64,000 bases of DNA, from NCBI GenBank assembly GCA_000002435.2, contig CM018792.1, one strand, 5' to 3'. The notes below the pieces were generated by a model. It saw only the letters and a program-made list of their open reading frames with translations, ran no database searches and had not been told where the DNA came from. Shown in pieces: positions 41,563 to 58,100 of this stretch. Each line of letters begins with the position of its first letter. Positions within the stretch are counted from its first letter, which is position 1. The position numbers and the translations under genes are program-made. Source of the DNA: Giardia intestinalis (lineage: Eukaryota).

Positions 41563-43065
41563 TCACAAAACCTTGCCCCGTAGGACAAGAAGAAGTCCAG
41601 AAAGCGATGCTGATAATACGCTCAGCATATTAACAGCTGTGTTAGATAATCGCAGTTTGCCCTGCCTCAGAGAAACGGCGCCACGGATACCCTCATTCCT
41701 ACCCAGCCTTCCATCTTGTAAGACACGGTTTTCTTGAAAGAGTGACCCTAGAAGAGAATCTGTAAGAGATCCTTGTATCCCTAGACAAAAGATATAGACG
41801 GCTTCGGGAAATGGTCTTCCTCCCTGCAGGCACCAAAGATATGCAATGGCTCCCGCACCAATAATAGATGCAACAGTCCCACAAAGAGACATGCCGCCGT
41901 CTGTGCCTGGAGGTGCAAGCTTGAGTCTTCCCAGGACAAAGACTCTGGACTCAGGCTTCGCTAGGCCCAGGCCAACCTCAGATGCCAAGGTATCAGCAAA
42001 TGCTTCTGCATAGTTAATGAACGTGAGAAAGAGAAAAGTCTGACGGTGTTGTCTCGGATATATGCGGGATATTAAGGAGCAAACCAGCCCTACATAGGAG
42101 TTGGAAAGAACCTGATATGCATTTCTGATAAATACATCAGCCACGAAGGTGGAGATGCGGTGCTTAAAAACTTTAGAGGCAAATAGGCTGCCGATGACAA
42201 AAAGAAATAGAGGGGTTAAGAATTCATAGCCGGCCAGCGCATGTGCAAAGAACACAAGGATTCCAGCCCGAGCCCCGTGAACAGTCAGATAATGTCTGGC
42301 TACACACAGCTCACCCATCAGGATAATAGCCCAAATAACACAGAACTTATAATAAGAATCAGCGATAATGTAATATCGCAGAACAAAGATCCCTATGAAG
42401 ACAGTTGTATTATCCCACTCGCCAGATATACGCAGAGCCTCAATGATCCCGGCAGAGACGGCGATAATGATCATCTGTGTCACGTTGAGGCCCAAATTAA
42501 GACCGAGAAAACTTTGAGATAGATAAAGACCAAGCATTGCTCCGCCGCATCCTACAAGCATACCTACAACTGTTTTTGCAGAGTCAGGCGCTCGGTAGCG
42601 CCGCCACCCAGAGGGGAAGAATGCAACTAATGAGGACAGCCCATCTCCAAACACGAGGCAAATCAAGCCCACGACACACACACGCCCGATGCTTCTGTTC
42701 CTTGTGTAGAGGAAGTTTGTTACTCCAGACCAGATCCCATATTCCAGTAAGGCGTGCTGTTTGATGATATTTTTCTTGTTCAAGCCCACTGAAACAGATC
42801 GGAGCCATGAGGTGTTCGCAAAGATGTAGAGTAAAATCCCAAATGCTATTGGCAACGCTGCTGATACCGAGGCTGCACCGATAGTCTGTGGGAGCACTGC
42901 AAGATGACATAGGTTCCCTGCCCCCGCCATCACGTGCAGACACCGCCTAGGTAATCCGCGAGGCATGACCTTCTGCAAGAGCACTAAAGTGCTGAGTAAT
43001 AAGCATACAAATGCCAGAAGAAGAGCGAGTGGTCTAACCGCCCCTTCTACGGGGAAACCCCCCAT
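41563..43065 (-). CDS. polytopic membrane protein with a CTP-dependent polyprenol-kinase-like motif (candidate dolichol kinase or DUF92/TMEM19-like)
   Basis: The track start at 43083 is a GTG, and the first ATG at 43065 is preceded by AAATTAAAA (MGGFPVEG...). There are about 10-12 hydrophobic helices. The motif VFGDGLSSLVAFFPSG...(13 aa)...SAKTVVGMLVG resembles the GD..AS..G...KT.EG signature of dolichol kinase, phytol kinase and CDS-family enzymes. The later Gly-rich motifs DGGMSLCGTVASIIGAG and RGAVSLRQG are reminiscent of DUF92. Confidence 0.55.
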   Translation of the reverse strand: MGGFPVEGAVRPLALLLAFVCLLLSTLVLLQKVMPRGLPRRCLHVMAGAGNLCHLAVLPQTIGAASVSAALPIAFGILLYIFANTSWLRSVSVGLNKKNIIKQHALLEYGIWSGVTNFLYTRNRSIGRVCVVGLICLVFGDGLSSLVAFFPSGWRRYRAPDSAKTVVGMLVGCGGAMLGLYLSQSFLGLNLGLNVTQMIIIAVSAGIIEALRISGEWDNTTVFIGIFVLRYYIIADSYYKFCVIWAIILMGELCVARHYLTVHGARAGILVFFAHALAGYEFLTPLFLFVIGSLFASKVFKHRISTFVADVFIRNAYQVLSNSYVGLVCSLISRIYPRQHRQTFLFLTFINYAEAFADTLASEVGLGLAKPESRVFVLGRLKLAPPGTDGGMSLCGTVASIIGAGAIAYLWCLQGGRPFPEAVYIFCLGIQGSLTDSLLGSLFQENRVLQDGRLGRNEGIRGAVSLRQGKLRLSNTAVNMLSVLSASLSGLLLVLRGKVL

Positions 43066-43204
43066 TTTTAATTTCAGTTCCACCGTACCACTTGTGGGTG
43101 CCTAGGTGGACGCCAACTTCTGAGGGTCCCACAGCAGAAACACTATGCTAGAATTATTCGTTGAACGAGGAGAAATAAAAAACTCATTCACATAGGACTT
43201 CGTG

Positions 43205-45721
43205 ATGATCTTCGTTTTGCTTTTTCTTTTAGGCGGAGTCTTCTTCGAGTGCACCACAGATAATGAATGTGGTGGTGATGGAGGAGTTTGTGACGTTGCA
43301 ATAAATGGGAAAAGATACTGTTCCAAGTGCGCAGGTAGCGATGCGGGAGCACGAGTGCCCATCAATGGAAAATGCAGACTGCTGAGCCTCTCACGGAGCA
43401 TATGCACAGTGCCCACGGGCAATAACCCTAATCCAGGCACGTGTACGGGCTGCATCCGTGACTTCCTCTTCTACAGGGGCGGGTGCTACCGCACGGCATC
43501 CCTGATCAACGCCATATGCAAGGAGAAGCACATCGTCGAGGAGGGGATGTACTGCGGGGCGTGCGCCATAGAGGGCGACGTCCCGATCGACGGGGTGTGC
43601 GTATCAGCAAGCACAGATAGCTCTGGAAACACGTGCGACAAGGGCGTGTGCACGACATGCGCAAGCGGATACTTCTTCCACTACGGGTCATGCTACAAAT
43701 TCGGAGGATCTCCAGGCAGCACTGTGTGTCCTAAGCCAACTAGCACTACTGGCTCTGTCTGTGATTCTTGCGGGTCGAAGTTCGTCAAGAACCCCAGTGC
43801 GAGCCCATCTGCCACCTCCTGCCTCGCGTGCTACGGCCTGGACGGGACCCTCTTCTGCGAGCGCTGCCGGATGAACGTGCTCACGAGCGCAGACGTGAAG
43901 CCCACTCTGTGCACACAGTGCAAAATAGGCTACGTGCCCGTGGATGGTCGTTGTGTGTCAACTTACTCTGCCACCTCGGCTCTTGCAGGGTGCTCTACCT
44001 ATAGCGGTAATGAGAATACAAAGGGACTTTGCGAAACGTGCTCCTCCGGCTACATGCTCTTCTACGGGAGCTGCTACTCTGTCAACGGCCCCCTCGCCCA
44101 GGCCATCTGCAAGACCGAGAACCAGATCTACCTTGGGGGAAGGGTCTTCTGCAAGCAGTGCGCCCAGGCAGACCACTACCCCATCAACGGCTTATGCATT
44201 GCTGATAAGGGATCACATACGTGCGAGGCGGGTATCTGCACAATATGCGACACCAGCACAACCCCCGTCGACAACTCCAAGGTTTTCCCGTTCTATAACG
44301 GCTGCTATGATGCAAACTCTGCAATCGGAAAGCTAATATGCCAGGAGGCGTCTAATGGAGCGTGCTCAACTTGCAATACAAACGAGACATCGAATATAAT
44401 AGCTAATCCTAATTCTGCAGATGGCCAACCAAAATGTCTTGGATGTTGGGACGAGGCAGCTACTGGGGTGGCCAACTGCGGAGGGTGTGCGACCGGCACA
44501 GACGGCGATTCCAAGATCGTCTGCAGCAAGTGCACCGACTCGACGGAACCCAAAGACAACACGTGCCCTCAGGCCCTCCCGCCCACAACGCCTGAAGGAT
44601 GCGCCGTGCAGGGCTGCCAGGCGTGCTCGAAGGACTCCCCCACGACGTGCGACGCCTGCTTCGAGCCTCTCATCATGAAAGAGGACAAGACGAAGTGCTT
44701 CGGGAGTTGCCTGGCGCTGGGCCCGGGCTACTACAACAACTCTGGGATATGCAGCCCATGCATAGAGAACTGTCTCCTTTGTACAGACGGGGCCACGTGC
44801 TCCCAGTGCGACGAAGGATATTATCTTGAACTATCGTCTGCTAATTCATCACAAGGTACTTGTAAGAAATGCGCTGCTGGCTGTTCTGCATGTAATGATG
44901 GCACTGACACTAGTTGTACAGCGTGCCTTCCTGGGTATTACATTGCAAGTGAGTCAAAAGCAAATAGAGCTGCAAAGTGTGTTCTATGTAACACTACTGA
45001 AAGCGACTACACTGGAATTCCAAATTGTATCGCTTGCTTTAGTACCGTAGGAAACAATGGGGCAAAGAATGTTAGGTGCAGTCAGTGCGAAGAAGGATAT
45101 ATTAAAAAACACAATGGATCTCAAGTTGTTTGTGAGCCTCCAACTCCAGAATGTAATGCCGCAATGTGCTCGGTTTGTGTTGAAAATAACCCAGATCGTT
45201 GTGAGCACTGCACGACCGGCGCGTACCTCTGCCCGCGGACGGCGGCGTGCACGAAGGACTGCGCCAGCTGCGGGGGCTCGATGTACCCCGACGAGGACCT
45301 CGGGGAGTGCCAGCCGTGCGACATCGCGAACTGCCGGGTCTGCGCGACGGGGCTCAAGTGCGAGAGCTGCGCGGAGAGCGCCGTCCCCATCTCCCCGGAC
45401 GTCTACCACACGGCGTGCATGGGCTGCAGCGACACCGGGGGCATGGACGGCTGGGTGGGCCTCGCGGGGTGCACGACCTGCGAGCTGACCGACAAGGGCG
45501 GCGGGAGCGTCAACTGCCTCGACCCTGGCTACTACCGGCGGGGCGGGCTCGGCGGGGGAGCAATCGCCGCCATCGTCATCGTCGTCCTCCTCGTCCTGGC
45601 CGTCGCCGGCTTCCTCGTCTGGTGGTTCGTCTTCAGGAGGGGCGGCCGGCCCAAGCGCGGGGCGAAGTACACATCGCTCATGCGGGGCGAGTCCTACGAC
45701 TACCGCCAGTCTCTAATATGA
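43205..45721 (+). CDS. High cysteine membrane protein (VSP-like cysteine-rich type I surface protein)
   Basis: The track start at 43202 is a GTG, and the ATG is at 43205. There is a signal peptide (MIFVLLFLLGGVFFEC), about 11% Cys with dozens of CxxC/CxC pairs, recurrent GGCY-like motifs (RGGCYR, YGSCYK, YGSCYS, NGCYD), and a single TM near the C-terminus (GAIAAIVIVVLLVLAVAGFLVWWFVF). The cytoplasmic tail is RRGGRPKRGAKYTSLMRGESYDYRQSLI, which is not the VSP CRGKA tail. AGTAAAC lies 7 nt after the stop. Confidence 0.85.
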   Translation: MIFVLLFLLGGVFFECTTDNECGGDGGVCDVAINGKRYCSKCAGSDAGARVPINGKCRLLSLSRSICTVPTGNNPNPGTCTGCIRDFLFYRGGCYRTASLINAICKEKHIVEEGMYCGACAIEGDVPIDGVCVSASTDSSGNTCDKGVCTTCASGYFFHYGSCYKFGGSPGSTVCPKPTSTTGSVCDSCGSKFVKNPSASPSATSCLACYGLDGTLFCERCRMNVLTSADVKPTLCTQCKIGYVPVDGRCVSTYSATSALAGCSTYSGNENTKGLCETCSSGYMLFYGSCYSVNGPLAQAICKTENQIYLGGRVFCKQCAQADHYPINGLCIADKGSHTCEAGICTICDTSTTPVDNSKVFPFYNGCYDANSAIGKLICQEASNGACSTCNTNETSNIIANPNSADGQPKCLGCWDEAATGVANCGGCATGTDGDSKIVCSKCTDSTEPKDNTCPQALPPTTPEGCAVQGCQACSKDSPTTCDACFEPLIMKEDKTKCFGSCLALGPGYYNNSGICSPCIENCLLCTDGATCSQCDEGYYLELSSANSSQGTCKKCAAGCSACNDGTDTSCTACLPGYYIASESKANRAAKCVLCNTTESDYTGIPNCIACFSTVGNNGAKNVRCSQCEEGYIKKHNGSQVVCEPPTPECNAAMCSVCVENNPDRCEHCTTGAYLCPRTAACTKDCASCGGSMYPDEDLGECQPCDIANCRVCATGLKCESCAESAVPISPDVYHTACMGCSDTGGMDGWVGLAGCTTCELTDKGGGSVNCLDPGYYRRGGLGGGAIAAIVIVVLLVLAVAGFLVWWFVFRRGGRPKRGAKYTSLMRGESYDYRQSLI

Positions 45722-47371
45722 TTCCCCAGTAAACGGAGCTATCGCCTGCCGGTGCCTGTCTCTGAACGCGCATATCCCGGAGATGTCGACGGAGCCGAGG
45801 AGCCTCCGCACCCGCAAGCGCTCCCCCGGAAAGGGCTCGGTGTCCGCCGTCTTCGAGATCGACACGCTGCACTCTGCGGCATCCGACGCGACGCAGGAGA
45901 GGCCGTTGTGGAGCACCACCCGGGAGATCTCGCTGACGTGGACGGACAGCATGGGCCGCAGGATGCACACTCGATGCCTGGCCCTGCTGGCAAAGTCCCT
46001 GACCTCGCAGTTGTAGTACCCCCGGAGCCCGAAGAAGGAGGCCCCGTGGACCCCGGTGATCGCCAGGGTCTCCAGGTCGTCCAGCAGGTGGTGGCCGAGG
46101 GCCAGGGCGTCGTAGCCGCCGGCGGACACAAAGCTCGCCAGTGTTCCGCGGCGGCAGCGAGAGCAGACGCTGCACGCAGACGCCTTCCTGGCCTCCTGCC
46201 CCGATGCATCCAGGCGGGCGATCTTGGCCGAGACGTCCATCCCAACCACCTGCTGCTCGAACGTCATGGCTCCCTCTGCGGCGTCGTCGATCGACAGCGC
46301 GCACGGGCAGAGGCTCCGTATCGTGTCCAGGATGAAGCCGGGTATCTTTGGGTCGAAGGTCACAGGGGTCACTTCCAGCGCCCCCAGGTCTCCTAGGCCG
46401 ATGGGGTCGAGCAATCCTCGTCTGGCCATTAGAGACAAAAGGGAAAGGTGAAGAAGAAGGCAGAGGCTGTCTTTTCCTCCTGAAAAGGCCACAGCTACTC
46501 GACGCAGGTTGCGAACGCGCTTTTCTCCAACCATAAAGGCAGCAATAGCGGACAGGACAGAGGTTGATGGACAAAAGGACTTGTGGACCACGTCCCCTTT
46601 ATCAGTTCTAAAGATAATCTTGACCGAAGCTAACTTATCTTGAATTGACGCCGAGGCAAAATACTCTGGAGAGCAATTGACCCTAAAATCACTGTTTGCC
46701 TGCAGCGTATGTCCTCGAAGCAACGCAGCAAAGGCTGAAGTAATATTTCTCAGGGCATGAGGGTTTATCTCTAGACTACTTGTGAGATACGACATAATCT
46801 TCAACGAATCACCAGGAGGTTCGGTAAAGCGCTTCCTGGCGGGCTGTGGGACAGTATGAGCTTCACCTGTGCATCCACTGATAAAAGAATCGAAATCCGG
46901 AGCGCATTGGAGCGAGTCAAGCTGGGTATCAGCTATGTAGAGGTACACATACATGATGCTATTTCGTGATGGCCCAGCCACGGTCGTTGCTGAAAACATT
47001 TCTAGGAACCAGTTTCTTCCCAACGTACTGTTTCTTGACCAATCTACCTCGAGGAAAAGCTTCTTATCTGGAAAGCAGGTAGAAAGCTCTTCGAGATCAG
47101 AGCAAGTCGTTAGCCCAAACGCTTGGCTAAGGCGATTTGTTATCTCCAGTGACCCGATGAGGCAGAGAGGAAAGAGTCCTCTTATCTTTCTCGCTGTGTG
47201 ATAAAGAAGTACTACGGCGAAGGCATAGTCGCGAATGGCTTTGTCGTCAGACAAGGGCTTGAGGAAATAAAAGACGGCCTTCTCCAGGACAGCTGTATCA
47301 TAGAGGATGTAAAGAGCCTGCTGAACGTGGCCGAGAGCGCTTTTCGGGGGTCTAAGAGAACGCTCGTGCAT
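45713..47371 (-). CDS. PP-loop ATP pyrophosphatase of the TtcA type (tRNA 2-thiolation family) with a ~220 aa N-terminal extension
   Basis: 552 aa, with an ATG verified at 47371. The C-terminal half has the PP-loop VAVAFSGGKDSLCLL, then CSVCSRCRRG (TtcA CSLCSRLRRG), ALGHHLLDDLETLAI (TtcA ALGHHRDDILQTLFL) and VCILRPML...LSCVASDAAECS (TtcA VIRPLAYC...IPCNLCGS). It lacks the flanking CxxC zinc fingers of Ncs6/Ctu1/TtuA. The first ~220 residues have no recognised homolog. The catalytic half is encoded by >70% GC DNA. Confidence 0.72.
   Translation of the reverse strand: MHERSLRPPKSALGHVQQALYILYDTAVLEKAVFYFLKPLSDDKAIRDYAFAVVLLYHTARKIRGLFPLCLIGSLEITNRLSQAFGLTTCSDLEELSTCFPDKKLFLEVDWSRNSTLGRNWFLEMFSATTVAGPSRNSIMYVYLYIADTQLDSLQCAPDFDSFISGCTGEAHTVPQPARKRFTEPPGDSLKIMSYLTSSLEINPHALRNITSAFAALLRGHTLQANSDFRVNCSPEYFASASIQDKLASVKIIFRTDKGDVVHKSFCPSTSVLSAIAAFMVGEKRVRNLRRVAVAFSGGKDSLCLLLHLSLLSLMARRGLLDPIGLGDLGALEVTPVTFDPKIPGFILDTIRSLCPCALSIDDAAEGAMTFEQQVVGMDVSAKIARLDASGQEARKASACSVCSRCRRGTLASFVSAGGYDALALGHHLLDDLETLAITGVHGASFFGLRGYYNCEVRDFASRARHRVCILRPMLSVHVSEISRVVLHNGLSCVASDAAECSVSISKTADTEPFPGERLRVRRLLGSVDISGICAFRDRHRQAIAPFTGESY
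45728..45734 (+). terminator. putative polyadenylation signal AGTAAAC (AGTRAAY) 7 nt after the HCMP stop codon
   Basis: It matches the AGTRAAY motif described for Giardia mRNAs and lies directly after the TGA at 45719-45721. Confidence 0.45.
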
Positions 47372-47379
47372 AGAGGGTG

Positions 47380-49407
47380 TTAAATTTTGAAAAGATTCGC
47401 CATCTCCAGCAATAGCGGCAACAGTGGTTCGAGGTGTGAAGCACCTTTATTACTCTGCAATCTGGAGTGCAGGCTTTCGTACAATGCACTTGTCTGAGGC
47501 TGTTTTTTAACGGCTTCTGGAAGAAGGGAATATGCCTTAAAAGCAAGGCTGTCCTCTGGGATTGCTGGTGGAGAAGCCTGGACTTGTGGTGTCACAAGTG
47601 TCGCCTCCACTTGCTCGGTTTTTGGTGTCTGTTGATCAGCTGTGCAACTATCTATAAGTCCACCTGAAACACTAGCTCTGAGCTCCTCAACCAGACGTGG
47701 AGCATCTGGAGTCCCAAGTGCCATCAGTATGGATTCTGAAAGCCCAACGTCACACTGAGGTGATTGTAAAAAGCGCCCTGGATACGCGGCCCGGGGATCA
47801 GCCAGTCCCGAAATGGCAGAAACGGTAAGCCTATCGCGAATGCCTGTGTGCCCTCTCTCGTTACCTGCAGGCATTCCAGATGTGGAGAGGCCCAAGTTCA
47901 CGTTCACTCCAACGCTTCCAGCTAGGGAGCGAGTGAAGGCGTACTTGGAATGTGATAAGCTCTGGCCGGTATCGATGCCCGTGACTGTCTGAGATGCTGA
48001 GGTGACCGATGCAATTGTGTCCTCCAGAAGGCTCAGATTCCCCATAGACGCTTGCGAGAGGTCAAGGCCCCCGGAGTCCTCCTTGTCTAGAACAACGGTG
48101 ATGTCACCATGTGTATTCTTCATGATCATTGGCTTGTATGCCAAGACGATGTTGACCGTGTTCTCAGTAGCAGGCGGCTGTGCAGCCTCCGGGGCTGCGT
48201 GAAGAATGCTTACACGGGTGCTTCGAGCAAGAGAGTTCGGGTGTCCGATGGCCGTAAAGATATTAGTCTCAATAAATCCTAGATTGCGTACTTCGTCACG
48301 CACAAGCTTGTGCACCTCGAATATGCTGACACGGTCCTTGGGGCGCTGGACAAGACACAGGGAAATAATGTTCTTGAGTGCGTCTGAATACTTGACACGC
48401 TTGTCCTGAAAGCTGAACTCTGCGCGATAGTTATAGCGAAGATCGTTGTCTGGAAATGGCAACCGTCTATACATCAGTCGATACAGCAATATTCCGAAGG
48501 CAAAGACATCAACAGCAGTGCCCAGGGGAAATTCAGGGTCGATCTTGATCTGCTCGGGGGCCCGGAAGCACGGGGTTGTCTTCAGCTCCAAGGACCTCAT
48601 CAAATCCTTCATCCCCTGCTCATTGTTCTTCATTAGATCTTGAAGCCTCTCGGAATCGTAAGACTCTGTGGTGCAGGATCCAAAGTCACAAAGCCTAAGA
48701 AGCTCTGGAAACTTGGTTGTGCAGCCATTATTGGCCAGTATATCGTCCAAATCATATGGCTCCAAGATCAGAATATTTTCTAACTTGAGGTCTCGATGTG
48801 AGCACCCCTTGCTGTGCAGACAGAGAATAGCAAGGGTGATGTTGTATGCAAACCTCCATATGAGTGGTTCTGGAAGAAAGACCTTGCGCTCTGAACATTT
48901 AATAAGGAGTTTGACGCAGTTCCCGCCCGAGCAATATTCAAGCAGTAGGCGGATAGTGGTGCAAGGAAGCCTTTTCATGCTATGCTTTCCCCCGTCCTGG
49001 ACTCCATGTCCCACACCGGGGACGGGGAGCGCGGAGGATGACAGCTTTAGTTCACGTTCCTGGGGCGCAAATTGTGATGATGTGATACTTGATGCTAGAT
49101 AGGACTGGGAACTGTGCATGCCATTTACGGTTAAATACTCATCAAAACACGCAAAATCTGCAGGGATATAAGTATCATCTAGAAGTAATCCGTGGAATCT
49201 AACAACACACTTTTCGTTGTTGAATCGGAGATGGAAGTAGATCTCTGTTATTGCATCATCATAAACCTTCAGGTCTGACACAGAAAGATGCTTCAATACA
49301 TACTGTTCTCCCGCACAGGATGCAGAATAAATGCGTGCAGATCCGCCCCTTGCAATCTCTTGGCCCACAATGATCTCCTTGTCTCCGAAACGCAAAATGC
49401 TATCCAT
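47380..49407 (-). CDS. Ser/Thr protein kinase, NEK-like (Giardia-type expanded NEK family)
   Basis: 675 aa, with an ATG verified at 49407. It has a Gly-rich loop GQEIARGGSARIYSA, lysine VLKHL, catalytic loop HRDLKLENILI, DFGS, and APE (FRAPEQ). An ~80 aa insertion lies between subdomains II and VI. There is a ~300 aa Ser/Thr/Gly-rich C-terminal tail without ankyrin repeats. Confidence 0.85.
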   Translation of the reverse strand: MDSILRFGDKEIIVGQEIARGGSARIYSASCAGEQYVLKHLSVSDLKVYDDAITEIYFHLRFNNEKCVVRFHGLLLDDTYIPADFACFDEYLTVNGMHSSQSYLASSITSSQFAPQERELKLSSSALPVPGVGHGVQDGGKHSMKRLPCTTIRLLLEYCSGGNCVKLLIKCSERKVFLPEPLIWRFAYNITLAILCLHSKGCSHRDLKLENILILEPYDLDDILANNGCTTKFPELLRLCDFGSCTTESYDSERLQDLMKNNEQGMKDLMRSLELKTTPCFRAPEQIKIDPEFPLGTAVDVFAFGILLYRLMYRRLPFPDNDLRYNYRAEFSFQDKRVKYSDALKNIISLCLVQRPKDRVSIFEVHKLVRDEVRNLGFIETNIFTAIGHPNSLARSTRVSILHAAPEAAQPPATENTVNIVLAYKPMIMKNTHGDITVVLDKEDSGGLDLSQASMGNLSLLEDTIASVTSASQTVTGIDTGQSLSHSKYAFTRSLAGSVGVNVNLGLSTSGMPAGNERGHTGIRDRLTVSAISGLADPRAAYPGRFLQSPQCDVGLSESILMALGTPDAPRLVEELRASVSGGLIDSCTADQQTPKTEQVEATLVTPQVQASPPAIPEDSLAFKAYSLLPEAVKKQPQTSALYESLHSRLQSNKGASHLEPLLPLLLEMANLFKI

Positions 49408-49424
49408 TCAAGAGTTTTGTCAAC

Positions 49425-49437
49425 GAAAATAAAAATG
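49425..49437 (+). promoter_or_regulatory. AT-rich initiator-like element abutting the PME-1 start codon (AAAATAAAAATG)
   Basis: The A/T-rich run lies immediately 5' of the ATG at 49435. Similar elements are seen at 30091-30105 (TTGCAAAAATAAATG), 43063-43080 on the minus strand (AAATTAAAAATG) and 12244-12258 on the minus strand (AAAGTAAAAAATG). Confidence 0.4.
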
Positions 49438-50547
49438 GGCCATCCACTGCTTCTCAAAACAGCCAACCTGGACCCTGTTCCTGAGGATAGACCAGGGACA
49501 GAAGCTCCTCCAGCACCTGCCTCTGCGGCCATCACTTTCTCTACTTCATATACAGAATGTTATGATAGCAGACTTTTCGTTGAGGCAAACGGACAAAAAG
49601 TCAACGTATACACTAAGGGGGTTTTTGATGACGTGCCTCTAATTTTCTTCGTCCACGGGGCAGGCTTTTCTGGTCTTTCCTTTGGGCCTCTAGTTAAGCG
49701 TGTGCACACAGAAGGATTCTGTGCAGCCCTGGATTTGCGCGGCCACGGTCTTACGGTCAATGAGGATGGTACTACTGCACTAGGAGATAGCATGACAATC
49801 GAGAATTTTGTAGCTGACTGTAAAGCAGTTTTGGACCATCTTTTCACACATATGTACAAGCCTGCAAATGAAAATGCCCAGAAAAAGTCTATTCTGCTGT
49901 GTGGTCACTCTCTTGGCGGGAGTATCGTTGCGCGGCTTGCAGTTGAGCTCCAGGAGTCCTATGACATCCAGCTCTGCTGCCTGATTGATATCAATGAGAC
50001 GGTGGCAATAGGTGCAATTCCCAACATGATGTCTGTTTTGAGGAAGAAGCCGCTTGCATTCTCCTCTGAGGAGGCCCTGGTGAGTTGGCTACTGTCGTCC
50101 CACACACTCTACAGCAGGTCTTCTGCGCTTTTCCAGGCTCCTGGGTTGATTCACGGGTCGCAGCATCCAAACTCCGGAAGGGTCATTGCAGATCTGATCA
50201 ACTCCGACGATAACTGGCGGGACTGGTTCATCGGATTGAATGACAACTTTCTTGGCAAATACCCTGGCTACAAGCTGCTCTTTATAGGTGGAATGGAGAA
50301 GCTTGACAAAGAGACGGAAATAGCGCATATGCAGGGCAAGCTTTCGATTGAGGTGGTACCCAACAGTGGTCACAATCTCCATGAAGATGACCCCAATACC
50401 GTGGCCTTTTACTTCATCAAGTACTTACGCCGAATGCATCTCTCGAAGAAGCTGATTCACAAACCCTTCGACTTCAAGAAGAAAGACCCCGATGAGGATC
50501 CAATTCCCCTGGAAGAAATCAAGCGTCTCTACGGCAGTGGGCAATGA
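49435..50547 (+). CDS. PPME1: Protein phosphatase methylesterase 1 (PME-1, PP2A methylesterase; alpha/beta hydrolase)
   Basis: 370 aa from the ATG at 49435, preceded by AAAATAAAA. The longer track ORF from 49288 overlaps the kinase. ALDLRGHGLTVN (PME-1 ALDLRSHGETKV), the nucleophile elbow GHSLGG, WRDWFIGLNDNFL (PME-1 WDGWFRGLSNLFL) and LLFIGGMEKLDKETEIAHMQGKLSIEVVPNSGHNLHEDDPNTVA (PME-1 [43 protein letters not shown]) all align. Confidence 0.85.
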   Translation: MGHPLLLKTANLDPVPEDRPGTEAPPAPASAAITFSTSYTECYDSRLFVEANGQKVNVYTKGVFDDVPLIFFVHGAGFSGLSFGPLVKRVHTEGFCAALDLRGHGLTVNEDGTTALGDSMTIENFVADCKAVLDHLFTHMYKPANENAQKKSILLCGHSLGGSIVARLAVELQESYDIQLCCLIDINETVAIGAIPNMMSVLRKKPLAFSSEEALVSWLLSSHTLYSRSSALFQAPGLIHGSQHPNSGRVIADLINSDDNWRDWFIGLNDNFLGKYPGYKLLFIGGMEKLDKETEIAHMQGKLSIEVVPNSGHNLHEDDPNTVAFYFIKYLRRMHLSKKLIHKPFDFKKKDPDEDPIPLEEIKRLYGSGQ

Positions 50548-50603
50548 GCAGAGGTAAACTTAAGCAATGCACATAGTTTAAAGGAATTTACAATCGAAGG
50601 AAA

Positions 50604-52067
50604 TTACTTAAGCTCTAAAGGAGTTGCATGCTCGCGCATCCTCCTCTCGTCGTGGGCCCACACACGAGCGATGGGCCTTGTCGACTTCAGGTTAACCTCT
50701 CTAAGCATGAAGTAGGTGTATGTTTCGTGCAATGCACGCGAAACGTTTGCCATGTGCTTAACCGTCAGTCCGTACTTGTTATAAAAGCCAATATTCGCGA
50801 GCTTTGAATTTTCTAAATACAGATAAGCCTTGCAAAGATCTGTCACCGCACATGCCCAGTCCATGAGGTAGCCACCAAGCCCGTAGCCTTTGAATGCGAC
50901 AGATGCTGCAATCCAACAGATGTAGAAGTGGTTCTCAAGACTGCCGCAGTGGAGGCTGTGCATTTTTTCTCCCGCTGAAAGACAACCAAGGTTTTTGGTA
51001 GAAATGCCCGCCGACGTGTATATCTTAACGAGATTTGCCGTGTTTCCCCAATATCCAGACTCTTGGCCCGGTGGATTGCCGATCATGCAGGCTGAAAAGG
51101 AATCATAGTCTACTTGATTGGGATATTGCTCTGCAACCTCAGACCTCGCCATCTGCAGCACCTGGCGGCCCTTGTTGTCACAACTCACAGTAGCAACGCA
51201 GAGACCGCGGTAGGAAGACACTGAGAACAGGTATCTAGTCAAATCGAAGAGCAGCGGAGCCAGGTGCTGGCTCTGGGGTTGAATAACTATTTTCAACGGG
51301 TCATCGAGGAACGCGCGGCTCAGCATAGTCGCCCCCATGTTGAACTCTAATGGACGGTCCACCTGGAGCATGCGGTGGAGACTTCCGAACTTGTCGAGAG
51401 TGGGGGCGATTGTGGCGCAGCGTGGATTGTTTATCAAAATGAGATCTTCTATATCCTCATATAGATTGAGGAGTAGGTTTTCGGGCCACAGGACATAGCC
51501 CGTGTGTGTAGGATGGCTGTTGATTTTAGTAAACCCTATCCCCTTGAGGTGCCGCTTGAAACTCGGACTGACAGCAAGTTCGTGGGCAAAAAGAGGAACG
51601 CCCTTCAGACAGGCCTGGAGAAGCGGTTGGTAAAGAAGGGCGTAGACCTTGCTCACTTCCATGTCTGCCTCGCTACATGCCAGGAAGGTGATGACCAGGT
51701 AGTCAGAGTACTCGACTCCTGTAACCTTTGAGATCAAGGGTACTACGTCGGATTTGAAGGGGTAGACCAGGTTGATATTGGCGTCCTTGAGCTCTCCTGT
51801 GAGCTTGACCTGAGAGCGAAGGTAAGTTGGCAGGTACAGACAGGCGCCCTCGATATGGGTGGTGTTGACACTAAGGTGAAAAGACTCGGTGGGAGGAAGA
51901 GAGTGGGAGCCCACGAGAACGGTGCGGTGGAAAGACGATTGGCAAAGCAGATAGTAGATTGACTTGGTGTAGTCCAAAACCCGCGGCCTGTTGCTTGCCA
52001 CGAGGTTATTTACCATTCTTCGGATGTTCTTCTCGTATATCTTCTCGGGTAATAGCGTTGCAAACAT
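50604..52067 (-). CDS. GNAT-fold acetyltransferase-like protein (apparently two tandem GNAT-like modules)
   Basis: The track start at 52076 is a GTG, and the first ATG is at 52067 (MFATLLPEK...). The C-terminal module has motif A-like HFYICWIAASVAFKGYGLGGYLMDWA and motif B-like NIGFYNKYGL. An earlier segment, HELAVSPSFKRHLKGIGFTKI, also resembles motif A. Which acetyltransferase subfamily it belongs to is unresolved. Confidence 0.5.
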   Translation of the reverse strand: MFATLLPEKIYEKNIRRMVNNLVASNRPRVLDYTKSIYYLLCQSSFHRTVLVGSHSLPPTESFHLSVNTTHIEGACLYLPTYLRSQVKLTGELKDANINLVYPFKSDVVPLISKVTGVEYSDYLVITFLACSEADMEVSKVYALLYQPLLQACLKGVPLFAHELAVSPSFKRHLKGIGFTKINSHPTHTGYVLWPENLLLNLYEDIEDLILINNPRCATIAPTLDKFGSLHRMLQVDRPLEFNMGATMLSRAFLDDPLKIVIQPQSQHLAPLLFDLTRYLFSVSSYRGLCVATVSCDNKGRQVLQMARSEVAEQYPNQVDYDSFSACMIGNPPGQESGYWGNTANLVKIYTSAGISTKNLGCLSAGEKMHSLHCGSLENHFYICWIAASVAFKGYGLGGYLMDWACAVTDLCKAYLYLENSKLANIGFYNKYGLTVKHMANVSRALHETYTYFMLREVNLKSTRPIARVWAHDERRMREHATPLELK

Positions 52068-52224
52068 GGTTACCACGGACTGTTAAAAAGCGGTTTGTAT
52101 ATTTCACTGGATATGGCATATCGGAAATTGCGCCACATTCAGCTAAAAGTGTCTCAAAAAATCCGCAGTCAAGTGCTTTCTTGCATTTTTATTCATCTGG
52201 AACGGCGAGCAACGAAAAAACAGG

Positions 52225-53643
52225 ATGGCCGGGAAGAAGGAGAAGTACTCTGTAAAGGCAATCATTGGGATCGTCGGCATGCTTGTTTTCGGCACGGGCA
52301 CGATGGTCAGCTCGAAGCTCATGCTCGATACAAGCGCTTGCCCCATTTACTATGAGTGGGAATACGGCAAGGACTACGAGCCCTGGGCCCACGGGGAGTG
52401 CCCTCCAGAGGTTGTCAAGAAATTCGAGAAGCCCTGGTTCCAGACTGCGTGCATGTTCATGGCCATGCTTGTCTGTATTATTGCGCATGGGATCATCGAG
52501 GCAGTGTCCCACACGAAGGCAAAGAAGAAGGCCGCTAGCCTGGCCGTGAAGAGTGCTGTCAGTGAGGGCAATGACACCGAGACGCACAGCGTTACGCAGC
52601 CGGCAGAAGCCGCGGCCAAGTCCAAGTTCAGAACCTGGCAGTATTGGAAGCCCTACGTTCTCATTGCAGTCCCTTCGATCTTCGATATGGTCGCCACCTC
52701 TGTCATGACCATGGGGCTGGTCTACATCGATGTTTCTGTCATGCAGATGCTTCGAGGGACGATGGTCGTCTTCGCTACGATCATGAACATCCTCTTTCTT
52801 CGTAGAAGAGTCCGACTCTACCAGTGGATTGCCATCATTGGGACTGTCTCCGCGTGCGCACTTGTCGGAGCCTCCTGCATCCTCGGCTCCATGGGGTCAA
52901 CCACCGCGAAGCCGTGGAACCTACAGATCTTCGGGTGCTTCCTTGTCGTTATTTCGCAGCTCATTCAGTCTGGTCAGATAGTCGCTGAAGACTTCCTCCT
53001 CAGCGACGTTGACGCAGCCCCGCTCCAAGTTGTTGGGATGGAGGGCTTCTGGGGTCTGCTCATCACGGTCTTCATCGTTTCTCCCTTGCTCATGTGGGGT
53101 GTTTCTGGCCCTGATCACGGAGCTAACGAGGATTTTGTTGACACCTTCTACATGGTTGCCGACAATCCGCTCATCCTTGTGTTTGTCTTAATTTATTTTG
53201 TGTCTATCTTGTTCCTCAACTGGGCAGGGATGACAGTCACCGCAGAGACGTCTTCAGTTGTCCGCACTATCTTTGAAGCCATCAGAACGGCTGCCATCTG
53301 GGTCACCGACCTCCTGATTTACTACCTCTTTGCCCCGAACTCTGTCTACGGAGAGTCCTGGACGACGTATAGCTGGATGCAACTGGCTGGTTTCCTCCTC
53401 TTGATCTACTCCTCTCAGGTGTATAACGGCTATTGTAAGTATCCCAAGATTTTCCGTTACAAGTTCGACGACGATGGAAGATGCAAGGGTGTTTTCGCTT
53501 GCTGTCCGAAGATCTTAGCAAAGAGCGACGAAAAGTTTGCTGCTGAGCAGAAGAAGGAGCAGGAGAAGGCCGCAGTCCTGGCTGCGCCCACCAAGCAGAC
53601 TCACCCAGAGCCTGATCTGGACGGGAGCACAGACAGTGTGTAA
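52225..53643 (+). CDS. SLC35F6-like transporter (drug/metabolite transporter superfamily, ~10 TM)
   Basis: 472 aa, with an ATG at 52225 after GAAAAAACAGG. LIAVPSIFDMVATSVMTMGLVYIDVSVMQMLRGTMVVFATIMNILFLRRRVRLYQWIAIIGTVSACALVG aligns with human SLC35F6 (LFLPPALCDMTGTSLMYVALNMTSASSFQMLRGAVIIFTGLFSVAFLGRRLVLSQWLGILATIAGLVVVG), and the later helices and a Lys/Glu-rich C-tail are consistent with it. Confidence 0.78.
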   Translation: MAGKKEKYSVKAIIGIVGMLVFGTGTMVSSKLMLDTSACPIYYEWEYGKDYEPWAHGECPPEVVKKFEKPWFQTACMFMAMLVCIIAHGIIEAVSHTKAKKKAASLAVKSAVSEGNDTETHSVTQPAEAAAKSKFRTWQYWKPYVLIAVPSIFDMVATSVMTMGLVYIDVSVMQMLRGTMVVFATIMNILFLRRRVRLYQWIAIIGTVSACALVGASCILGSMGSTTAKPWNLQIFGCFLVVISQLIQSGQIVAEDFLLSDVDAAPLQVVGMEGFWGLLITVFIVSPLLMWGVSGPDHGANEDFVDTFYMVADNPLILVFVLIYFVSILFLNWAGMTVTAETSSVVRTIFEAIRTAAIWVTDLLIYYLFAPNSVYGESWTTYSWMQLAGFLLLIYSSQVYNGYCKYPKIFRYKFDDDGRCKGVFACCPKILAKSDEKFAAEQKKEQEKAAVLAAPTKQTHPEPDLDGSTDSV

Positions 53644-53663
53644 ATCTGCTATTCTATAATTTA

Positions 53664-56600
53664 CTAGGGCGCACGCATGTACTTTTGTATTGCAGCGGTG
53701 ATCTCTGCACGCTGGCTCTCAGAATGTATCTTGCTGTTCTGCAGAACCTTCAGCGCAGCCTCTCCATATGTCTGCGCCTCATAGGCCGCTAATGCACTAA
53801 CGCACTTGGCATTTCCGCTGGCCACGGCAAACGATAGGCCCGTCCACGGCTCTCCTGTCACGGGGCAATGTCTAACAACCACTCCTGTTTCTTTCTCGGC
53901 CAAAAGAGCAGCACACTCCTGGAAGCCACGCTCGCATGCAATCATCAGCGCGGTGAAGCCATTGGAATCAATCATGCTGTGCTCGTATGGGATGAGCTCC
54001 CGTACAACCGCCACTTGGTTTTCCCTTGTTGCAATCATCAAAGCCGTTGTCCCAAATCTCGTTTGCATCCGCCCCTCACAGGAAAGAAGGAATCGCACCA
54101 CCTGCAAATGGCCACAAAAGGCGGCCGCCATAAGCGCTGTCTTCCCGATATTGTCCTTCAGCTTCTTCTCTAGATTGACAAGGAGCTTCACGCAGTCAAT
54201 ACTTCCGTTCATTGCTGCGATCATCATAGCGGTTGCTGGGGCCATCTTCCAGTAGCTTATTTCGTAAGAAGTGCAGACTTGACCGTATTCCTGCTCCATG
54301 AGTAGAGATGCAATGGCAGCGTTGTTTCTTTCGCAAGCGATCATTAGAGCCGTTTGCTTTAATCTGTTGACGAGTCCTGCCTGCGAAGTGGCGAGCTCTG
54401 CAGCTCGTTCGTTGTTTCCGTCGATGATTGCCTGCATTAGCTCGCTATTCTTGTTGATATTCCTTGCCGATTTACGCCTTTCTTCGGGACCTGAAATTTT
54501 CTGCACAGTAGTAGCACTGGGTAAAACAGAGGAAGACGACCCTTCTTGATGATGCACACCTGTGCTCGGATGATTACTGACTGTGCGCAAGTGATGCTGC
54601 TCAATAGACGCGAATGCATTTGCCGAATTAGGGGTCGATTCCACAAGTGTGCTGTATTGGCTACTGGGCAGCTCTTTTTGAGAGTCAGTAGGCCGCAAGT
54701 GTACAGCGTGAGGAGTACCTTCTGCATCAGGTTGCCCAATCGGCGAACCGGGAGAATTAATAGTGAGGTTACTTATATTTTCAGGCAGTAAGCTTGCGTT
54801 GGCACTGGGTGCATTACTAGAGTGGTTGCTAGGTCCTGGAATAGATACCACAGACGGCTTATTCGAGGAGAGTGATGTCGAATACTGCCGAGTGACAGTG
54901 TCGGCCAACACGTGTCTTTGTTTCGCGACGTCAGGCAGCGTGGGCTCGAGCCTATGTTGCATCCCATAAAGGCTGCGACGAGTTGGCATTGGGGCTGGGA
55001 CAGGACATTCTGACGAATCCTGAACATTTTGAATGGACACAACATTGTAATTATTTGCTGATCCGCGCGTAGTAGCGTGCCCACTGTTGTGGCGACTACT
55101 TGCTCCACTTGTACTATTACGTGCGCTAGATGCCTTCGAAGATTTATCGTTAGATTTAGATGTAAAGGAAATAGACTGATAGCTATTCTCTGAGGCTGTC
55201 ATATCAGATTCATAGAGTGCCATATTATCTTTATCAGGAAGCTTCTGCACGACTTGAGCACGAGAATGAGTATCTCTCCTGACATCCTCACGAAAATCGG
55301 CGTCAGGAGCAGGGGGAACATAGTCGTCTTGGTCGCTTTGCTCTTCCTCTAAAGCATTCTGTTCGTCACAACGTCTAGCCACATCCCACGAAGCAGCTTC
55401 TTGATTGAATAGCTCTTGAAGCATGCTCACGATATCTGTGTAGCCTCTGTTCGCAGCTATCGTTAGTGGTGTCATCCCATTGATATTTGAAGAATAGTAC
55501 TGATCCTTGAAACAATATGCTGCAACAATGTCCCCTTGATCACAGGCTTGCATAAGCTCCGTGTACTTCTCTGAGTCTGCTTGCACAGCCTCTCGAGTGT
55601 CTGGAGAACCGCAATATTGCATTATGGATACCCCTTCCTTCGGGATTAGAATCTCTGCAATAGCATAATTGTGGCATCTGATGGCTACTTCAATGGCCAT
55701 CAGTCCGTTTGCGTTGACAAACCCGCCTTCAAAGGCAACAAGGACCTGGGCGACCGCAGGGTTGTCCATAACCTCCGCTACCTGCATCAAGCACGTGTAA
55801 TCGTCATTATCTGTGATGTTGCACTCGTGAGGGAGAATCACGTTTGCGGCCTCCATGCTGTTCTTTTCGACGGCTAGCATGAGGGCTGTCCGGCCGTCCT
55901 TAGTCTTTATGCCAGCCTCTTTACTTACCAGGACGAACGCGGCCTCTGCCTGGTTGTGCACAGCTGCAATATGCAGGGCGGTGTAGCCACCCTCGTCCAG
56001 CAAAGTGCCCTCAGTATCCAGTAGCATCGCTGCGCTCTGAGGCTGGTTACACCGTGCAGCTAACATGAGCGCGGTCCGTCCTCCCAGTGAACGCATACCA
56101 GCTTCCTCAGCAATGAGTTTCTGGATGATATCAAGATTGCTTACTCTTGACGCTATCATGAGAGCAGTGATTCCAACAGTGTCGCTGTATCTGGATTCAT
56201 AAGGAATAAGCGCGTTTGCGGCAGCGGTGAACCCCTCTTCGATTGCGTACATAAGAGCGGTTTTTCCGACAATGTTCTGAAGTCCAGCCTGTTCTGGGAT
56301 AAGGGATAGAACCGCCTCTATGTCATTGGCCAAAACAGCATTCATGAGCTCGCTATTGGAGCGTAGGATTTCGTCGTCAGTGTATGACTGGAATAAGTCA
56401 TCATTAGCGTCATCTAAAGAGCGCTCTACATTATTTAGAACACCTACTCCAGTGTAAGTCTCAGATTGAGGGGTTTCAAAACGAAATGAATCGCTTACCA
56501 GAGGGTAAGATTGCTCCATTGCTGATGAATTATCATAAGAGTTGCCTGGCATGCCTCTTGCATCAGTGATACTGGCGTGCTTTTGATGACCAGTATCGGG

Positions 56601-58100
56601 AGGAGGTATGCTAGAAAGTAAAACACTATCTACTTGTGTGTCTACAAATGCAGAAAAAGCGCTATCGCCGACCTGTGGGAGACTAGGGTTGTCCATAATC
56701 TCTTGTTGTGCCAAGTATACATGCGTGTCAGCGAAGTTCTGACTGTCAAGGTGGTGGTCTCCTGTACCGACGGTTGGCGAGAGCATGTATCTTTGGTTAT
56801 GAACAACTGTATTGGGAAGCATAGTTCCCTGGAGGACTCCTGCATTGAATCCATCGCTGTCTCCAAAATTGGAAAAATTAGCATTATAGTCGTCTGTGCC
56901 TGTGCCTGGTTCGTTAACTCGTAGATTGATAGAATCATCGGGGATGTTCCTGGGGACCTTCTCAAAGTCTTGCGAGTATAGTGTCTCCTCATCAATCCGT
57001 TGAAGCACAGGAGGCTCGCGTGGACGAGAAATTGTTCGGCGATCTGCTGGGGTAGCCGATCGAGAAATCGGAAGCGATTTCATCACTTGGAGCTGGCGGC
57101 GAAGGCATTCTATTTCCTCGCTATTGTGCTGGAGCTTTCTAAAGAGTAGTTCTATGACATTTTCCCTCATTACCTCAGGGCCTGAGGGGACGGAATGCTT
57201 TCCATAGTCGTCCCTGTCGTAATGTGAGGGCCTCACTGAAGTGAAGCTTGCATTGTAGGCCGCATATACAGGCTCAGTCGCAGTATCTAGTGGCGGATGA
57301 GGGTTGACTCGTACACTTGCTGAGACAGATCTGGGGAGCAAACCAGTTAAGCAACTGGCCCGGCTTGCTGAGGCTTTAATGTTGGCCGATGAGACAGTAG
57401 GATCCACCCCTGGGGTGTGTGCCGATGAGGAGCTGGCACCAATAAACTCCGGGATATACTCCGAGATGACGTTGGGAGGAGAAGCATCTGCCCGTCTTCC
57501 AACAGAACTGCCTTTTGATAACCTTGCCCTCTCAGGCTTTGGCTTGGATGATCGGTCGCGAAGCTCAATAAGACGCTCTGCCAGCAAGTCGTTATGCAAG
57601 CTCCGAGATATCATAATCGCCTGATTCAAACAGTTCTCCTTCACTTGGGGAAGCCCAACCAGATAATTGACTATCGCACTATGACCGGACTGGATGGCGT
57701 AGTCCAGCGCTGACCGATTAAACGCGTCTCTGTGTGCTGGGTTATTGTCCTTGAGAATATGGACGCACTTTAGATGACCGGCCTGTGCAGCGAGGATGAG
57801 CGGGGTCCTTTTGTTCTGCAAACTTAATTTCGCTTCGCGAGCGTAAAGAAGCTCACAAGCTGCGGCATTTCCCATTGTGGCAGCAATAGACAGTGCTGTA
57901 GAGCCATCCCGCGAAATGACCCCGGCCTCGTGGTCCAGAAGAAGCTGAACGAGATGCTTGTCAAAGAGGCGTACAGATTGCATTAGCGCCGTTTCCCCGA
58001 GGTCATTGTAGCTTCTGGCATTATTTTGGAGAAGAAAGCGCACCATCTTAGTGTCTCCCTTCTCTACGGCGTCAAACCACGCCTTGCTACTCGTCATCAT
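53664..58100 (-). CDS. Ankyrin-repeat protein of the Giardia 'Protein 21.1' type (1478 aa)
   Basis: An ATG pair (MM) at 58100 was verified. Three blocks of ~33-aa ankyrin repeats are recognisable by recurring G.TALM.AA....(L/V)..LL motifs. They lie at the N-terminus (res ~20-180), in the middle (res ~590-860) and at the C-terminus (res ~1190-1470). Low-complexity Ser/Pro/Asn-rich linkers separate them. Confidence 0.85.
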   Translation of the reverse strand: MMTSSKAWFDAVEKGDTKMVRFLLQNNARSYNDLGETALMQSVRLFDKHLVQLLLDHEAGVISRDGSTALSIAATMGNAAACELLYAREAKLSLQNKRTPLILAAQAGHLKCVHILKDNNPAHRDAFNRSALDYAIQSGHSAIVNYLVGLPQVKENCLNQAIMISRSLHNDLLAERLIELRDRSSKPKPERARLSKGSSVGRRADASPPNVISEYIPEFIGASSSSAHTPGVDPTVSSANIKASASRASCLTGLLPRSVSASVRVNPHPPLDTATEPVYAAYNASFTSVRPSHYDRDDYGKHSVPSGPEVMRENVIELLFRKLQHNSEEIECLRRQLQVMKSLPISRSATPADRRTISRPREPPVLQRIDEETLYSQDFEKVPRNIPDDSINLRVNEPGTGTDDYNANFSNFGDSDGFNAGVLQGTMLPNTVVHNQRYMLSPTVGTGDHHLDSQNFADTHVYLAQQEIMDNPSLPQVGDSAFSAFVDTQVDSVLLSSIPPPDTGHQKHASITDARGMPGNSYDNSSAMEQSYPLVSDSFRFETPQSETYTGVGVLNNVERSLDDANDDLFQSYTDDEILRSNSELMNAVLANDIEAVLSLIPEQAGLQNIVGKTALMYAIEEGFTAAANALIPYESRYSDTVGITALMIASRVSNLDIIQKLIAEEAGMRSLGGRTALMLAARCNQPQSAAMLLDTEGTLLDEGGYTALHIAAVHNQAEAAFVLVSKEAGIKTKDGRTALMLAVEKNSMEAANVILPHECNITDNDDYTCLMQVAEVMDNPAVAQVLVAFEGGFVNANGLMAIEVAIRCHNYAIAEILIPKEGVSIMQYCGSPDTREAVQADSEKYTELMQACDQGDIVAAYCFKDQYYSSNINGMTPLTIAANRGYTDIVSMLQELFNQEAASWDVARRCDEQNALEEEQSDQDDYVPPAPDADFREDVRRDTHSRAQVVQKLPDKDNMALYESDMTASENSYQSISFTSKSNDKSSKASSARNSTSGASSRHNSGHATTRGSANNYNVVSIQNVQDSSECPVPAPMPTRRSLYGMQHRLEPTLPDVAKQRHVLADTVTRQYSTSLSSNKPSVVSIPGPSNHSSNAPSANASLLPENISNLTINSPGSPIGQPDAEGTPHAVHLRPTDSQKELPSSQYSTLVESTPNSANAFASIEQHHLRTVSNHPSTGVHHQEGSSSSVLPSATTVQKISGPEERRKSARNINKNSELMQAIIDGNNERAAELATSQAGLVNRLKQTALMIACERNNAAIASLLMEQEYGQVCTSYEISYWKMAPATAMMIAAMNGSIDCVKLLVNLEKKLKDNIGKTALMAAAFCGHLQVVRFLLSCEGRMQTRFGTTALMIATRENQVAVVRELIPYEHSMIDSNGFTALMIACERGFQECAALLAEKETGVVVRHCPVTGEPWTGLSFAVASGNAKCVSALAAYEAQTYGEAALKVLQNSKIHSESQRAEITAAIQKYMRAP

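Follow-up and report, generated by a model that had tools for sequence, protein, structure and literature searches.

A GC-rich block at convergent HCMP Group 3 and PP-loop genes of Giardia intestinalis is the constant part of a dispersed repeat

Introduction

GC-biased gene conversion (gBGC) raises the GC content of third codon positions (GC3) of concertedly evolving paralogs in other eukaryotes. Families in which this occurs, including mammalian histone and Hsp70 paralogs and ribosomal DNA, were reportedly described by Galtier in 2003 and by Kudla and colleagues in 2004. Here we describe a clear further example of a concerted family in which conversion has probably driven GC3 up, located on chromosome 4 of Giardia intestinalis isolate WB (assemblage A, A1) in a stretch of 64 kb that was analyzed at its full length (hereafter, the window). 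The subject is a GC-rich island that spans the 3' ends of two convergent genes, one on the plus strand that encodes a cysteine-rich HCMP Group 3 protein and one on the minus strand that encodes a PP-loop family protein. This island corresponds to the constant block of a repeat unit of ~3.2 kb that is dispersed in the genome and consists of the HCMP Group 3 gene and ~700 bp co-duplicated from the 3' end of the PP-loop gene. The copies of the block are homogenized within lineages, and its silent sites have probably been driven to G or C by GC-biased conversion among the copies.

As in the gBGC families, homogenization of the paralogs takes place within a genome, and the rise of GC3 is specific to converted tracts. 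Also shared are sharp edges of composition at the limits of homology, and conservation of the protein while the silent sites move to G or C. Unlike those families, the tract at this locus drags along part of an unrelated, presumably functional single-copy gene on the opposite strand. A further difference is that Giardia is without demonstrated meiosis, sub-assemblage AI being reported as asexual, and that the bias is read here from its footprint.

Within Giardia, the VSP and HCMP families are known to undergo isolate-specific duplication and segmental conversion (PMC7641422; PMC4570179), and the first of these papers attributes segmental gene conversion among VSPs to Adam et al. 2010. A 2025 population genomics study found the gene-conversion tracts of assemblage A to be GC-enriched (median gene GC of 0.541 vs 0.488) and enriched in VSPs, with a median tract length of 3.3 kb (PMC12669663). 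The locus described here belongs to the same superfamily, has mosaic paralogs and is GC-enriched, and its unit of ~3.2 kb matches the median tract reported there (PMC12669663). The published figures are genome-wide statistics (PMC12669663; PMC7641422; PMC4570179), whereas our results give the detail of a single locus. Literature searches, and the passages that they led to, contained no account of a rule that links GC3 to paralog identity within a gene, of capture of a PP-loop 3' end, or of lineage-specific recoding of a PP-loop gene.

The 3' ends of VSP genes are conserved and encode a transmembrane (TM) domain and a CRGKA tail, followed by an extended polyadenylation signal (PMC1762436). HCMP Group 3 genes similarly have a constant TM segment and tail after a variable, cysteine-rich ectodomain, and a putative polyadenylation signal directly past the stop codon. 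Unlike the VSPs, their tail ends in ...YDYRQSLI rather than CRGKA, the constant block is longer (175 amino acids), and conservation extends beyond the stop codon by ~690 bp, reaching into the neighboring gene.

Sequences compared

The window was compared with loci from isolate DH (assemblage A2; the orthologue, L007, and a paralog, L006), from P15 (assemblage E; L003 and L008) and from GS (assemblage B; L001 and L004), as well as with loci from runs ERR3333382 (L002) and ERR3333383 (L005). The six WB Group 3 paralogs are the window protein and P0005, P0020, P0006, P0026 and P0027; the accessions of the WB loci are KAE8302202, KAE8303703, KAE8301266, KAE8304798, KAE8304727 and KAE8303553. A protein cluster look-up and the neighboring kinase led to the PP-loop orthologue of P15 and to the truncated PP-loop copies in WB.

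Composition and extent of the island

A preliminary description of this DNA had reported an abrupt GC-rich island over the 3' ends of both genes. Sliding-window GC and GC3 bear this out: the island occupies positions 45195-46408, with a GC content of 0.683 compared with a mean of 49% for the whole window. Windows of 200 bp across 45200-46400 have GC contents of 0.635-0.725, compared with a mean of 0.491 (standard deviation 0.041, maximum 0.62) in the 627 such windows elsewhere in the 64 kb. At the left edge, GC in 30-bp windows is 0.37 at 45175 and has climbed to 0.73 by 45205; the edge looks so abrupt because the adjacent patch (44800-45194) is low in GC3. The right edge lies at ~46405-46435, where 30-bp GC falls from 0.63-0.73 to 0.43-0.57.

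Nearly all of the GC excess is at the third codon positions of the two convergent genes, and the GC contents of first and second positions (GC1 and GC2) are almost flat. GC3 is 0.85-1.0 over the final 175 HCMP codons and 0.82-1.00 over the final ~230 PP-loop codons. The fourfold degenerate sites of the island are rich in C (0.41-0.54) as well as in G (0.39-0.46), whereas in the other GC3-rich genes of the window C alone is enriched and G is 0.18-0.24. It had also been stated that every frame of the island is open. The non-coding frames are indeed poor in stop codons (1-10 per frame in the 1214-bp island vs 9-24 in a control stretch), and this gives rise to spurious open reading frames of 141-298 amino acids, but the frames are not free of stops. 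G-quadruplex potential had been suggested as a property to look for; a motif search detected no canonical G-quadruplex motif within the island. Within the 64-kb window there is no second copy of the island, nor any other HCMP.

Identity of the island: constant block of a dispersed repeat

A further copy of the repeat is directly visible in isolate DH. The blastn match between the window and the DH paralogous locus has 88.8% identity over 3194 bp, with a mosaic identity profile, and it stops exactly at position 46408. At that locus, a 271-amino-acid PP-loop fragment is convergent with an 834-amino-acid HCMP Group 3 gene, with a 9-bp overlap, among quite different neighbors. A three-way alignment, in which WB is set against the orthologous and the paralogous copy of DH, places the paralogy breakpoint at the right edge of the island (Table 1). 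The left edge is also a limit of paralogy. The six WB Group 3 paralogs diverge directly upstream of it and are 96-100% identical from 'RCEHCT' (amino acid 665, position 45197) to the end; their near-identity begins at amino acids 664-665, which corresponds to 45194-45197 in the window.

Besides the full-length PP-loop gene, WB encodes two 272-amino-acid 'PP-loop family proteins', KAE8303704.1 (chromosome 4) and KAE8302203.1 (1.54-Mb chromosome), which are numbered consecutively with the HCMP Group 3 paralogs KAE8303703.1 and KAE8302202.1. The truncated copies (P0057 and P0058 from WB and P0059 from DH; 272/271 amino acids) are near-identical to the window protein from 'DPIGLGDLG' (amino acid 322) to the C-terminus, and all three lack the SGGKDS motif. 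At least three assemblage A loci bear the same PP-loop-derived flank. The preliminary description thought it unlikely that the island belongs to one protein family. We find the opposite, as its edges are the paralogy boundaries of HCMP Group 3, with the addition of the co-duplicated piece of the PP-loop gene. HCMP Group 3 loci have GC-rich 3' ends that are near-identical irrespective of the adjacent genes, which for this group comes close to the finding that the preliminary description had named as contrary to its view (identical GC-rich 3' flanks at all HCMP/VSP loci).

The truncated copies at different loci (P0057, P0058 and P0059; L006 6001-6123) have in common an N-terminal extension of ~40 amino acids, MAFPSNAERFDPLVPMARPDDF..., that is missing in the full-length gene. 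Therefore, the truncated loci were copied from one another, flank included.

The abrupt change in composition might instead mark DNA of foreign or introgressed origin, or an artefact of assembly (e.g., a collapsed repeat consensus placed at this locus), and a 2007 gene model that spanned the GC-rich part alone (XP_001708333.1, 185 amino acids) could be read in the same way. Either origin is extremely improbable. Both open reading frames cross the junctions, and full-length orthologues with the same structure are present in the independent DH, P15 and GS assemblies. Phylogenetic distances calculated from amino acids are equal inside and outside the island. The preliminary description had offered a different evolutionary origin as one option, but what the island encodes of the PP-loop protein is orthologous to its counterparts in other assemblages and equally conserved, and the silent sites alone differ. 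Both candidates were rejected, the artefact because the gene structures recur in the DH, P15 and GS assemblies and the foreign origin because protein distances in and out of the island are congruent.

Homogenization and continuing exchange among copies

In the constant block, three copies from assemblage A (that of WB and the two of DH, orthologue and paralog) have nucleotide identities of 0.979-0.987 to one another, and two P15 paralogs are 0.968 identical, compared with 0.922-0.937 between assemblages A and E. The HCMP bodies group differently, by subfamily: identity is 0.82 between WB and P15 L003, 0.71 between WB and P15 L008, and 0.73 between the two P15 genes. Grouping by genome in the block and by subfamily in the body is the signature of concerted evolution. 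The copies have been homogenized within lineages.

The exchange among copies is continuing. WB and the DH orthologue are ~99.4% identical in the unique flanks, but patches of the HCMP body have been replaced wholesale (43600-43699, with 0.66-0.86 identity, and 44800-45150, with 0.54-0.70 identity). In the second of these patches, the DH sequence is similar to that of the WB paralog P0020. Divergence between WB and DH is 1.57% in the island vs 0.6% in the unique flanks (Fisher p=0.001). Among the variable sites of the island, 13 fit orthology, 12 have a state shared by WB and the DH paralog, and 6 have a state common to the two DH copies only, a split that indicates reticulate sharing of variants.

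If the repeat were a recent duplication from an already GC-rich source, without continuing conversion, the copies could be alike simply because they are young. The 97-100% identity of the assemblage A island copies, which is of the same order as that between A1 and A2 orthologues, agrees with this. The same copies, however, are just 50-70% identical in the adjoining patches of the HCMP body. Furthermore, both HCMP subfamilies occur in A and E and are thus older than the A/E split, yet the block groups by lineage. The reticulate distribution of variants across WB and the two DH copies also argues against youth of the copies, as do the PP-loop orthologues of assemblage B and L002, which are not GC-rich. 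We therefore give this possibility very little weight.

Two GS loci from different assemblies (L001 11654-12777 and L004 ~2050-3185) are 100% identical over the equivalent of 44600-45599, the variable region included. The identity breaks off at ~45600, where the GC content of L001 falls too. This abrupt break reflects either a conversion that took place very recently or a chimeric assembly.

GC3 follows homogenization and differs between lineages

Along the HCMP gene, GC3 in 20-codon windows correlates with mean amino acid identity to the five other WB paralogs (Spearman rho 0.87, p=8e-14). The correlation is 0.81 with the island left out, and 0.37 for first and second positions combined. Patches shared among copies have GC3 of 0.8-1.0, compared with 0.2-0.5 in copy-specific patches. 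Thus, GC3 tracks homogenization.

The convergent arrangement of the HCMP and PP-loop genes is ancestral and is also present in assemblage B (GS, L001) and in the distant lineage L002. The gain of GC3 in the PP-loop gene is lineage-specific, as revealed by the comparison of orthologous loci that had been proposed as a check. In the segment encoding amino acids 322-552, GC3 is 0.82-1.00 in WB and DH and 0.73-0.90 in P15, with the same starting point, compared with 0.33-0.76 in GS (assemblage B) and 0.30-0.52 in L002. The 5' part of the gene has GC3 of 0.2-0.67 in every lineage. In the WB gene, GC3 changes from ~0.45 to ~0.9 exactly at the duplication breakpoint. Amino acid identity in the segment equals or exceeds that in the rest of the gene, and so the difference between lineages sits in silent sites.

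The assemblage B paralog that was examined (L004) has just ~66 bp of PP-loop sequence past the HCMP stop codon, and no truncated copies were found in the PP-loop protein cluster of assemblage B. In L005, GC3 of the HCMP constant block is just 0.43. Third-position changes on the stem of A and E comprise 36 to G or C and 4 to A or T in the island vs 20 and 11 outside it (Fisher p=0.017, for an unrooted quartet with saturated sites). The proportion of G, A, R and P (GARP) residues in the island segment is 0.30-0.33 in A and E (0.32 in WB) vs 0.28 in B and 0.24 in L002.

The loci of the divergent Giardia lineages (L005 1758-4292 and L002 7871-9535) have a GC content of ~0.44 and no GC island in the HCMP block or the PP-loop gene.

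Selection on codon usage or mRNA might produce such a pattern, since well-expressed Giardia genes favor codons ending in G or C and optimal codons are used most at conserved residues; the GC3 of the conserved block would then result from translational selection. GC3 does correlate with amino acid conservation among the paralogs, and other genes of the window reach an overall GC3 of 0.65-0.70. We consider this quite unlikely, as the PP-loop segment is equally conserved in B and L002, where its GC3 is 0.3-0.76, and a single gene changes from ~0.45 to ~0.9 exactly at a duplication breakpoint. Also, G is raised as much as C at fourfold sites, unlike in the other GC3-rich genes, and the PP-loop part lies beyond the putative polyadenylation signal of the HCMP gene, on the opposite strand.

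Somewhat less improbable, though still unlikely, is a regional GC-biased mutational process, either error-prone repair at a site prone to recombination or breakage, or transcription-associated mutagenesis where convergent transcripts collide, with or without R-loops. In its favor, the two convergent 3' ends, with their 9-bp overlap, both lie within the island, and the locus is recombinationally active, with raised WB-DH divergence in the island. Assemblage B and L002, however, have the same convergent arrangement with little or no rise of GC in the PP-loop gene. The edges of the island fit the limits of paralogy rather than the ends of transcripts, patches of the HCMP body far from the point of convergence follow the same link between GC3 and identity, and the lack of a G-quadruplex motif in the island likewise argues against this process.

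GC-biased ectopic conversion as the probable cause

The explanation that we favor, and regard as probable, is one in which ectopic gene conversion homogenizes a dispersed repeat, with the island as its constant block, and GC-biased conversion has driven the silent sites to G or C. The duplication of an HCMP Group 3 gene to other loci would date from the ancestor of assemblages A and E, and the duplicate would have carried along the adjoining 3' ~700 bp of the convergent PP-loop gene, with which it overlapped by 9 bp. The copies have since traded sequence by ectopic (non-allelic) gene conversion, as the homogenization described above shows. The extracellular HCMP body is a mosaic of shared and copy-specific patches, whereas among copies the 3' block (45195-45721) stays 97-100% identical, as does the flank derived from the PP-loop gene (to 46408). 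The presumably functional PP-loop gene of this locus is therefore part of the conversion network over its 3' 231 codons. If heteroduplex repair during conversion prefers G/C to A/T, frequent conversion would cause sites free of selection, essentially third positions, to drift to G/C, producing GC3 of 0.85-1.0 and sharp edges at the limits of paralogy.

The observations have the form expected of gBGC: the rise in GC is confined to converted tracts, it occurs at sites free of selection, and G and C are both increased. GC-biased gene conversion at a recombination hotspot was already among the processes named in the preliminary description. It stands as the best explanation, and the locus shows conversion (the patches replaced between WB and DH, and the reticulate variants), but conversion is ectopic among dispersed copies and not an allelic hotspot at one site.

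Several points weigh against this explanation. What is seen is the expected footprint and not the bias itself, and it is from this footprint that we infer GC-biased repair during ectopic conversion as the cause of the G/C enrichment. Third positions are saturated, which makes parsimony polarity unreliable, and three-taxon parsimony, used here as supporting evidence only, makes the GS and L002 branches look strongly biased from G/C to A/T in the island. It is thus conceivable that the GC richness was ancestral and decayed in B and L002. The correlation between GC3 and identity could arise in part from stronger codon selection at conserved residues. The WB paralogs were compared as proteins, and the DNA-level data on paralogs are from DH and P15. 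That the truncated PP-loop copies of WB adjoin HCMP paralogs is suggested by consecutive accession numbers and shared contigs, and the arrangement is seen directly in DH only. Finally, no truncated PP-loop copy was found in P15 despite the island there; the P15 assembly is fragmented at these loci.

A further step is put forward tentatively, and we consider it rather doubtful. The 3' 231 codons of the PP-loop gene, a functional, single-copy gene of tRNA-modification type, may be continuously rewritten by GC-biased conversion with pseudogene fragments borne by the surface-antigen-like HCMP family, which would saturate the silent sites and begin to shift amino acid composition (GARP residues, 0.32 in WB vs 0.24-0.28 in lineages lacking the full island). 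If so, the locus would report naturally on recombination in Giardia that is GC-biased and either non-meiotic or cryptically sexual. More speculative is the idea that the convergent PP-loop fragment reading frames are antisense modules that regulate expression of HCMP Group 3 genes.

Implications

An apparent anomaly of composition now has a concrete and testable mechanism. In HCMP Group 3 genes, GC3 near 1.0 marks tracts exchanged among paralogs and low GC3 marks copy-specific sequence; the same rule probably extends to related cysteine-rich families. Conversion spills into an unrelated housekeeping-type gene. For annotation, 272-amino-acid 'PP-loop family proteins' without SGGKDS are fragments borne by the repeat. 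For typing and for calling of single-nucleotide polymorphisms, reads from the constant block are effectively multi-copy. Footprints of GC-biased conversion also bear on the debate about sex and recombination in Giardia, for which they provide an independent readout of recombination in lineages that are called asexual.

Features of the locus and additional observations

Table 1: Positions in the window of the two convergent genes, the repeat and its parts.
Feature	Position	Strand	Basis and remarks
HCMP Group 3 gene, 838 aa	43205..45721	+	Pfam VSP PF03302; 100% identity to P0033
Variable, paralog-specific patch in HCMP	44800..45194	+	GC3 0.2-0.35 (~0.25); 54-70% identity to DH orthologue, flanks ~99%
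Constant 3' block of HCMP Group 3 (aa ~664-838, TM and cytoplasmic tail)	45195..45721	+	GC3 0.94; near-identical in six WB paralogs
AGTAAAC, 7 bp past HCMP stop codon	45728..45734	+	Sequence read; kept in all lineages aligned
PP-loop family gene, 552 aa, full-length	45713..47371	-	PF01171; exact match to KAE8303554.1 / XP_001708332.1
3' part of PP-loop gene (aa 322-552), also in truncated copies beside other HCMP Group 3 genes	45713..46408	-	GC3 0.82-1.0
Repeat unit, ~3.2 kb: HCMP gene and PP-loop 3' 696 bp	43224..46408		blastn vs DH AHGT01000047 (L006 6124-9293)
Paralogy breakpoint, equal to right island edge	46408..46409		Three-way alignment of WB, DH orthologue and DH paralog

The HCMP product is identical to the WB protein KAE8303553.1 / XP_001708333.2, and its identity to a protein annotated as Group 3 places it in that group. 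Its ectodomain is cysteine-rich with many CxxC motifs, and the match to PF03302 (E=2e-39) comprises six stretches. There is a single C-terminal TM segment (amino acids 786-810, positions 45560-45634 of the window), which is included in the 175 amino acids of the C-terminus that the island covers, and the tail, RRGGRPKRGAKYTSLMRGESYDYRQSLI, is without the VSP signature CRGKA. The AGTAAAC sequence past the stop codon fits the Giardia polyadenylation signal consensus AGTRAAY, and we take it to be a putative polyadenylation signal.

The match of the PP-loop protein to PF01171 (E=3e-9) scores 37.2 bits, compared with a gathering cut-off of 27. The nearest solved structure is TilS, to which similarity is weak (E=4e-4 over 76 residues), and a CSVCSRC motif is present. 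The earlier label 'TtcA-like' has no specific support. The island was also said to cover the catalytic half of this gene. It does cover the C-terminal 231 amino acids, but the SGGKDS motif (amino acids 297-302, positions 46466-46483) is just beyond it. The full-length copy is presumably functional.

The HCMP and PP-loop genes converge with an overlap of 9 bp at 45713-45721, and the island holds both stop codons. This stop-end overlap is kept in WB, DH, P15 and GS and at the DH paralogous locus. Compared with DH, WB has a 3-bp TTC insertion (~45722-45724) that changes the C-terminus of the PP-loop protein from GSY to GESY.

The 2007 gene model XP_001708333.1 ('High cysteine protein'; 45164-45721) starts at M654 and spans the GC-rich constant block alone, whereas the 2020 HCMP model has 838 amino acids. 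Probably, the older assembly or annotation was broken at the HCMP repeat.

P15 has two different HCMP Group 3 genes, each of which aligns with the single WB gene (window 42948-45739 and 43345-57380). One (L003 1-2787) is an HCMP on the DUF92 side, followed by another HCMP and unrelated genes, and the other (L008 1-14063) is on the PP-loop side, at a contig end. The WB and DH arrangement may be the product of a deletion or of unequal recombination, or else there may have been an insertion in P15.

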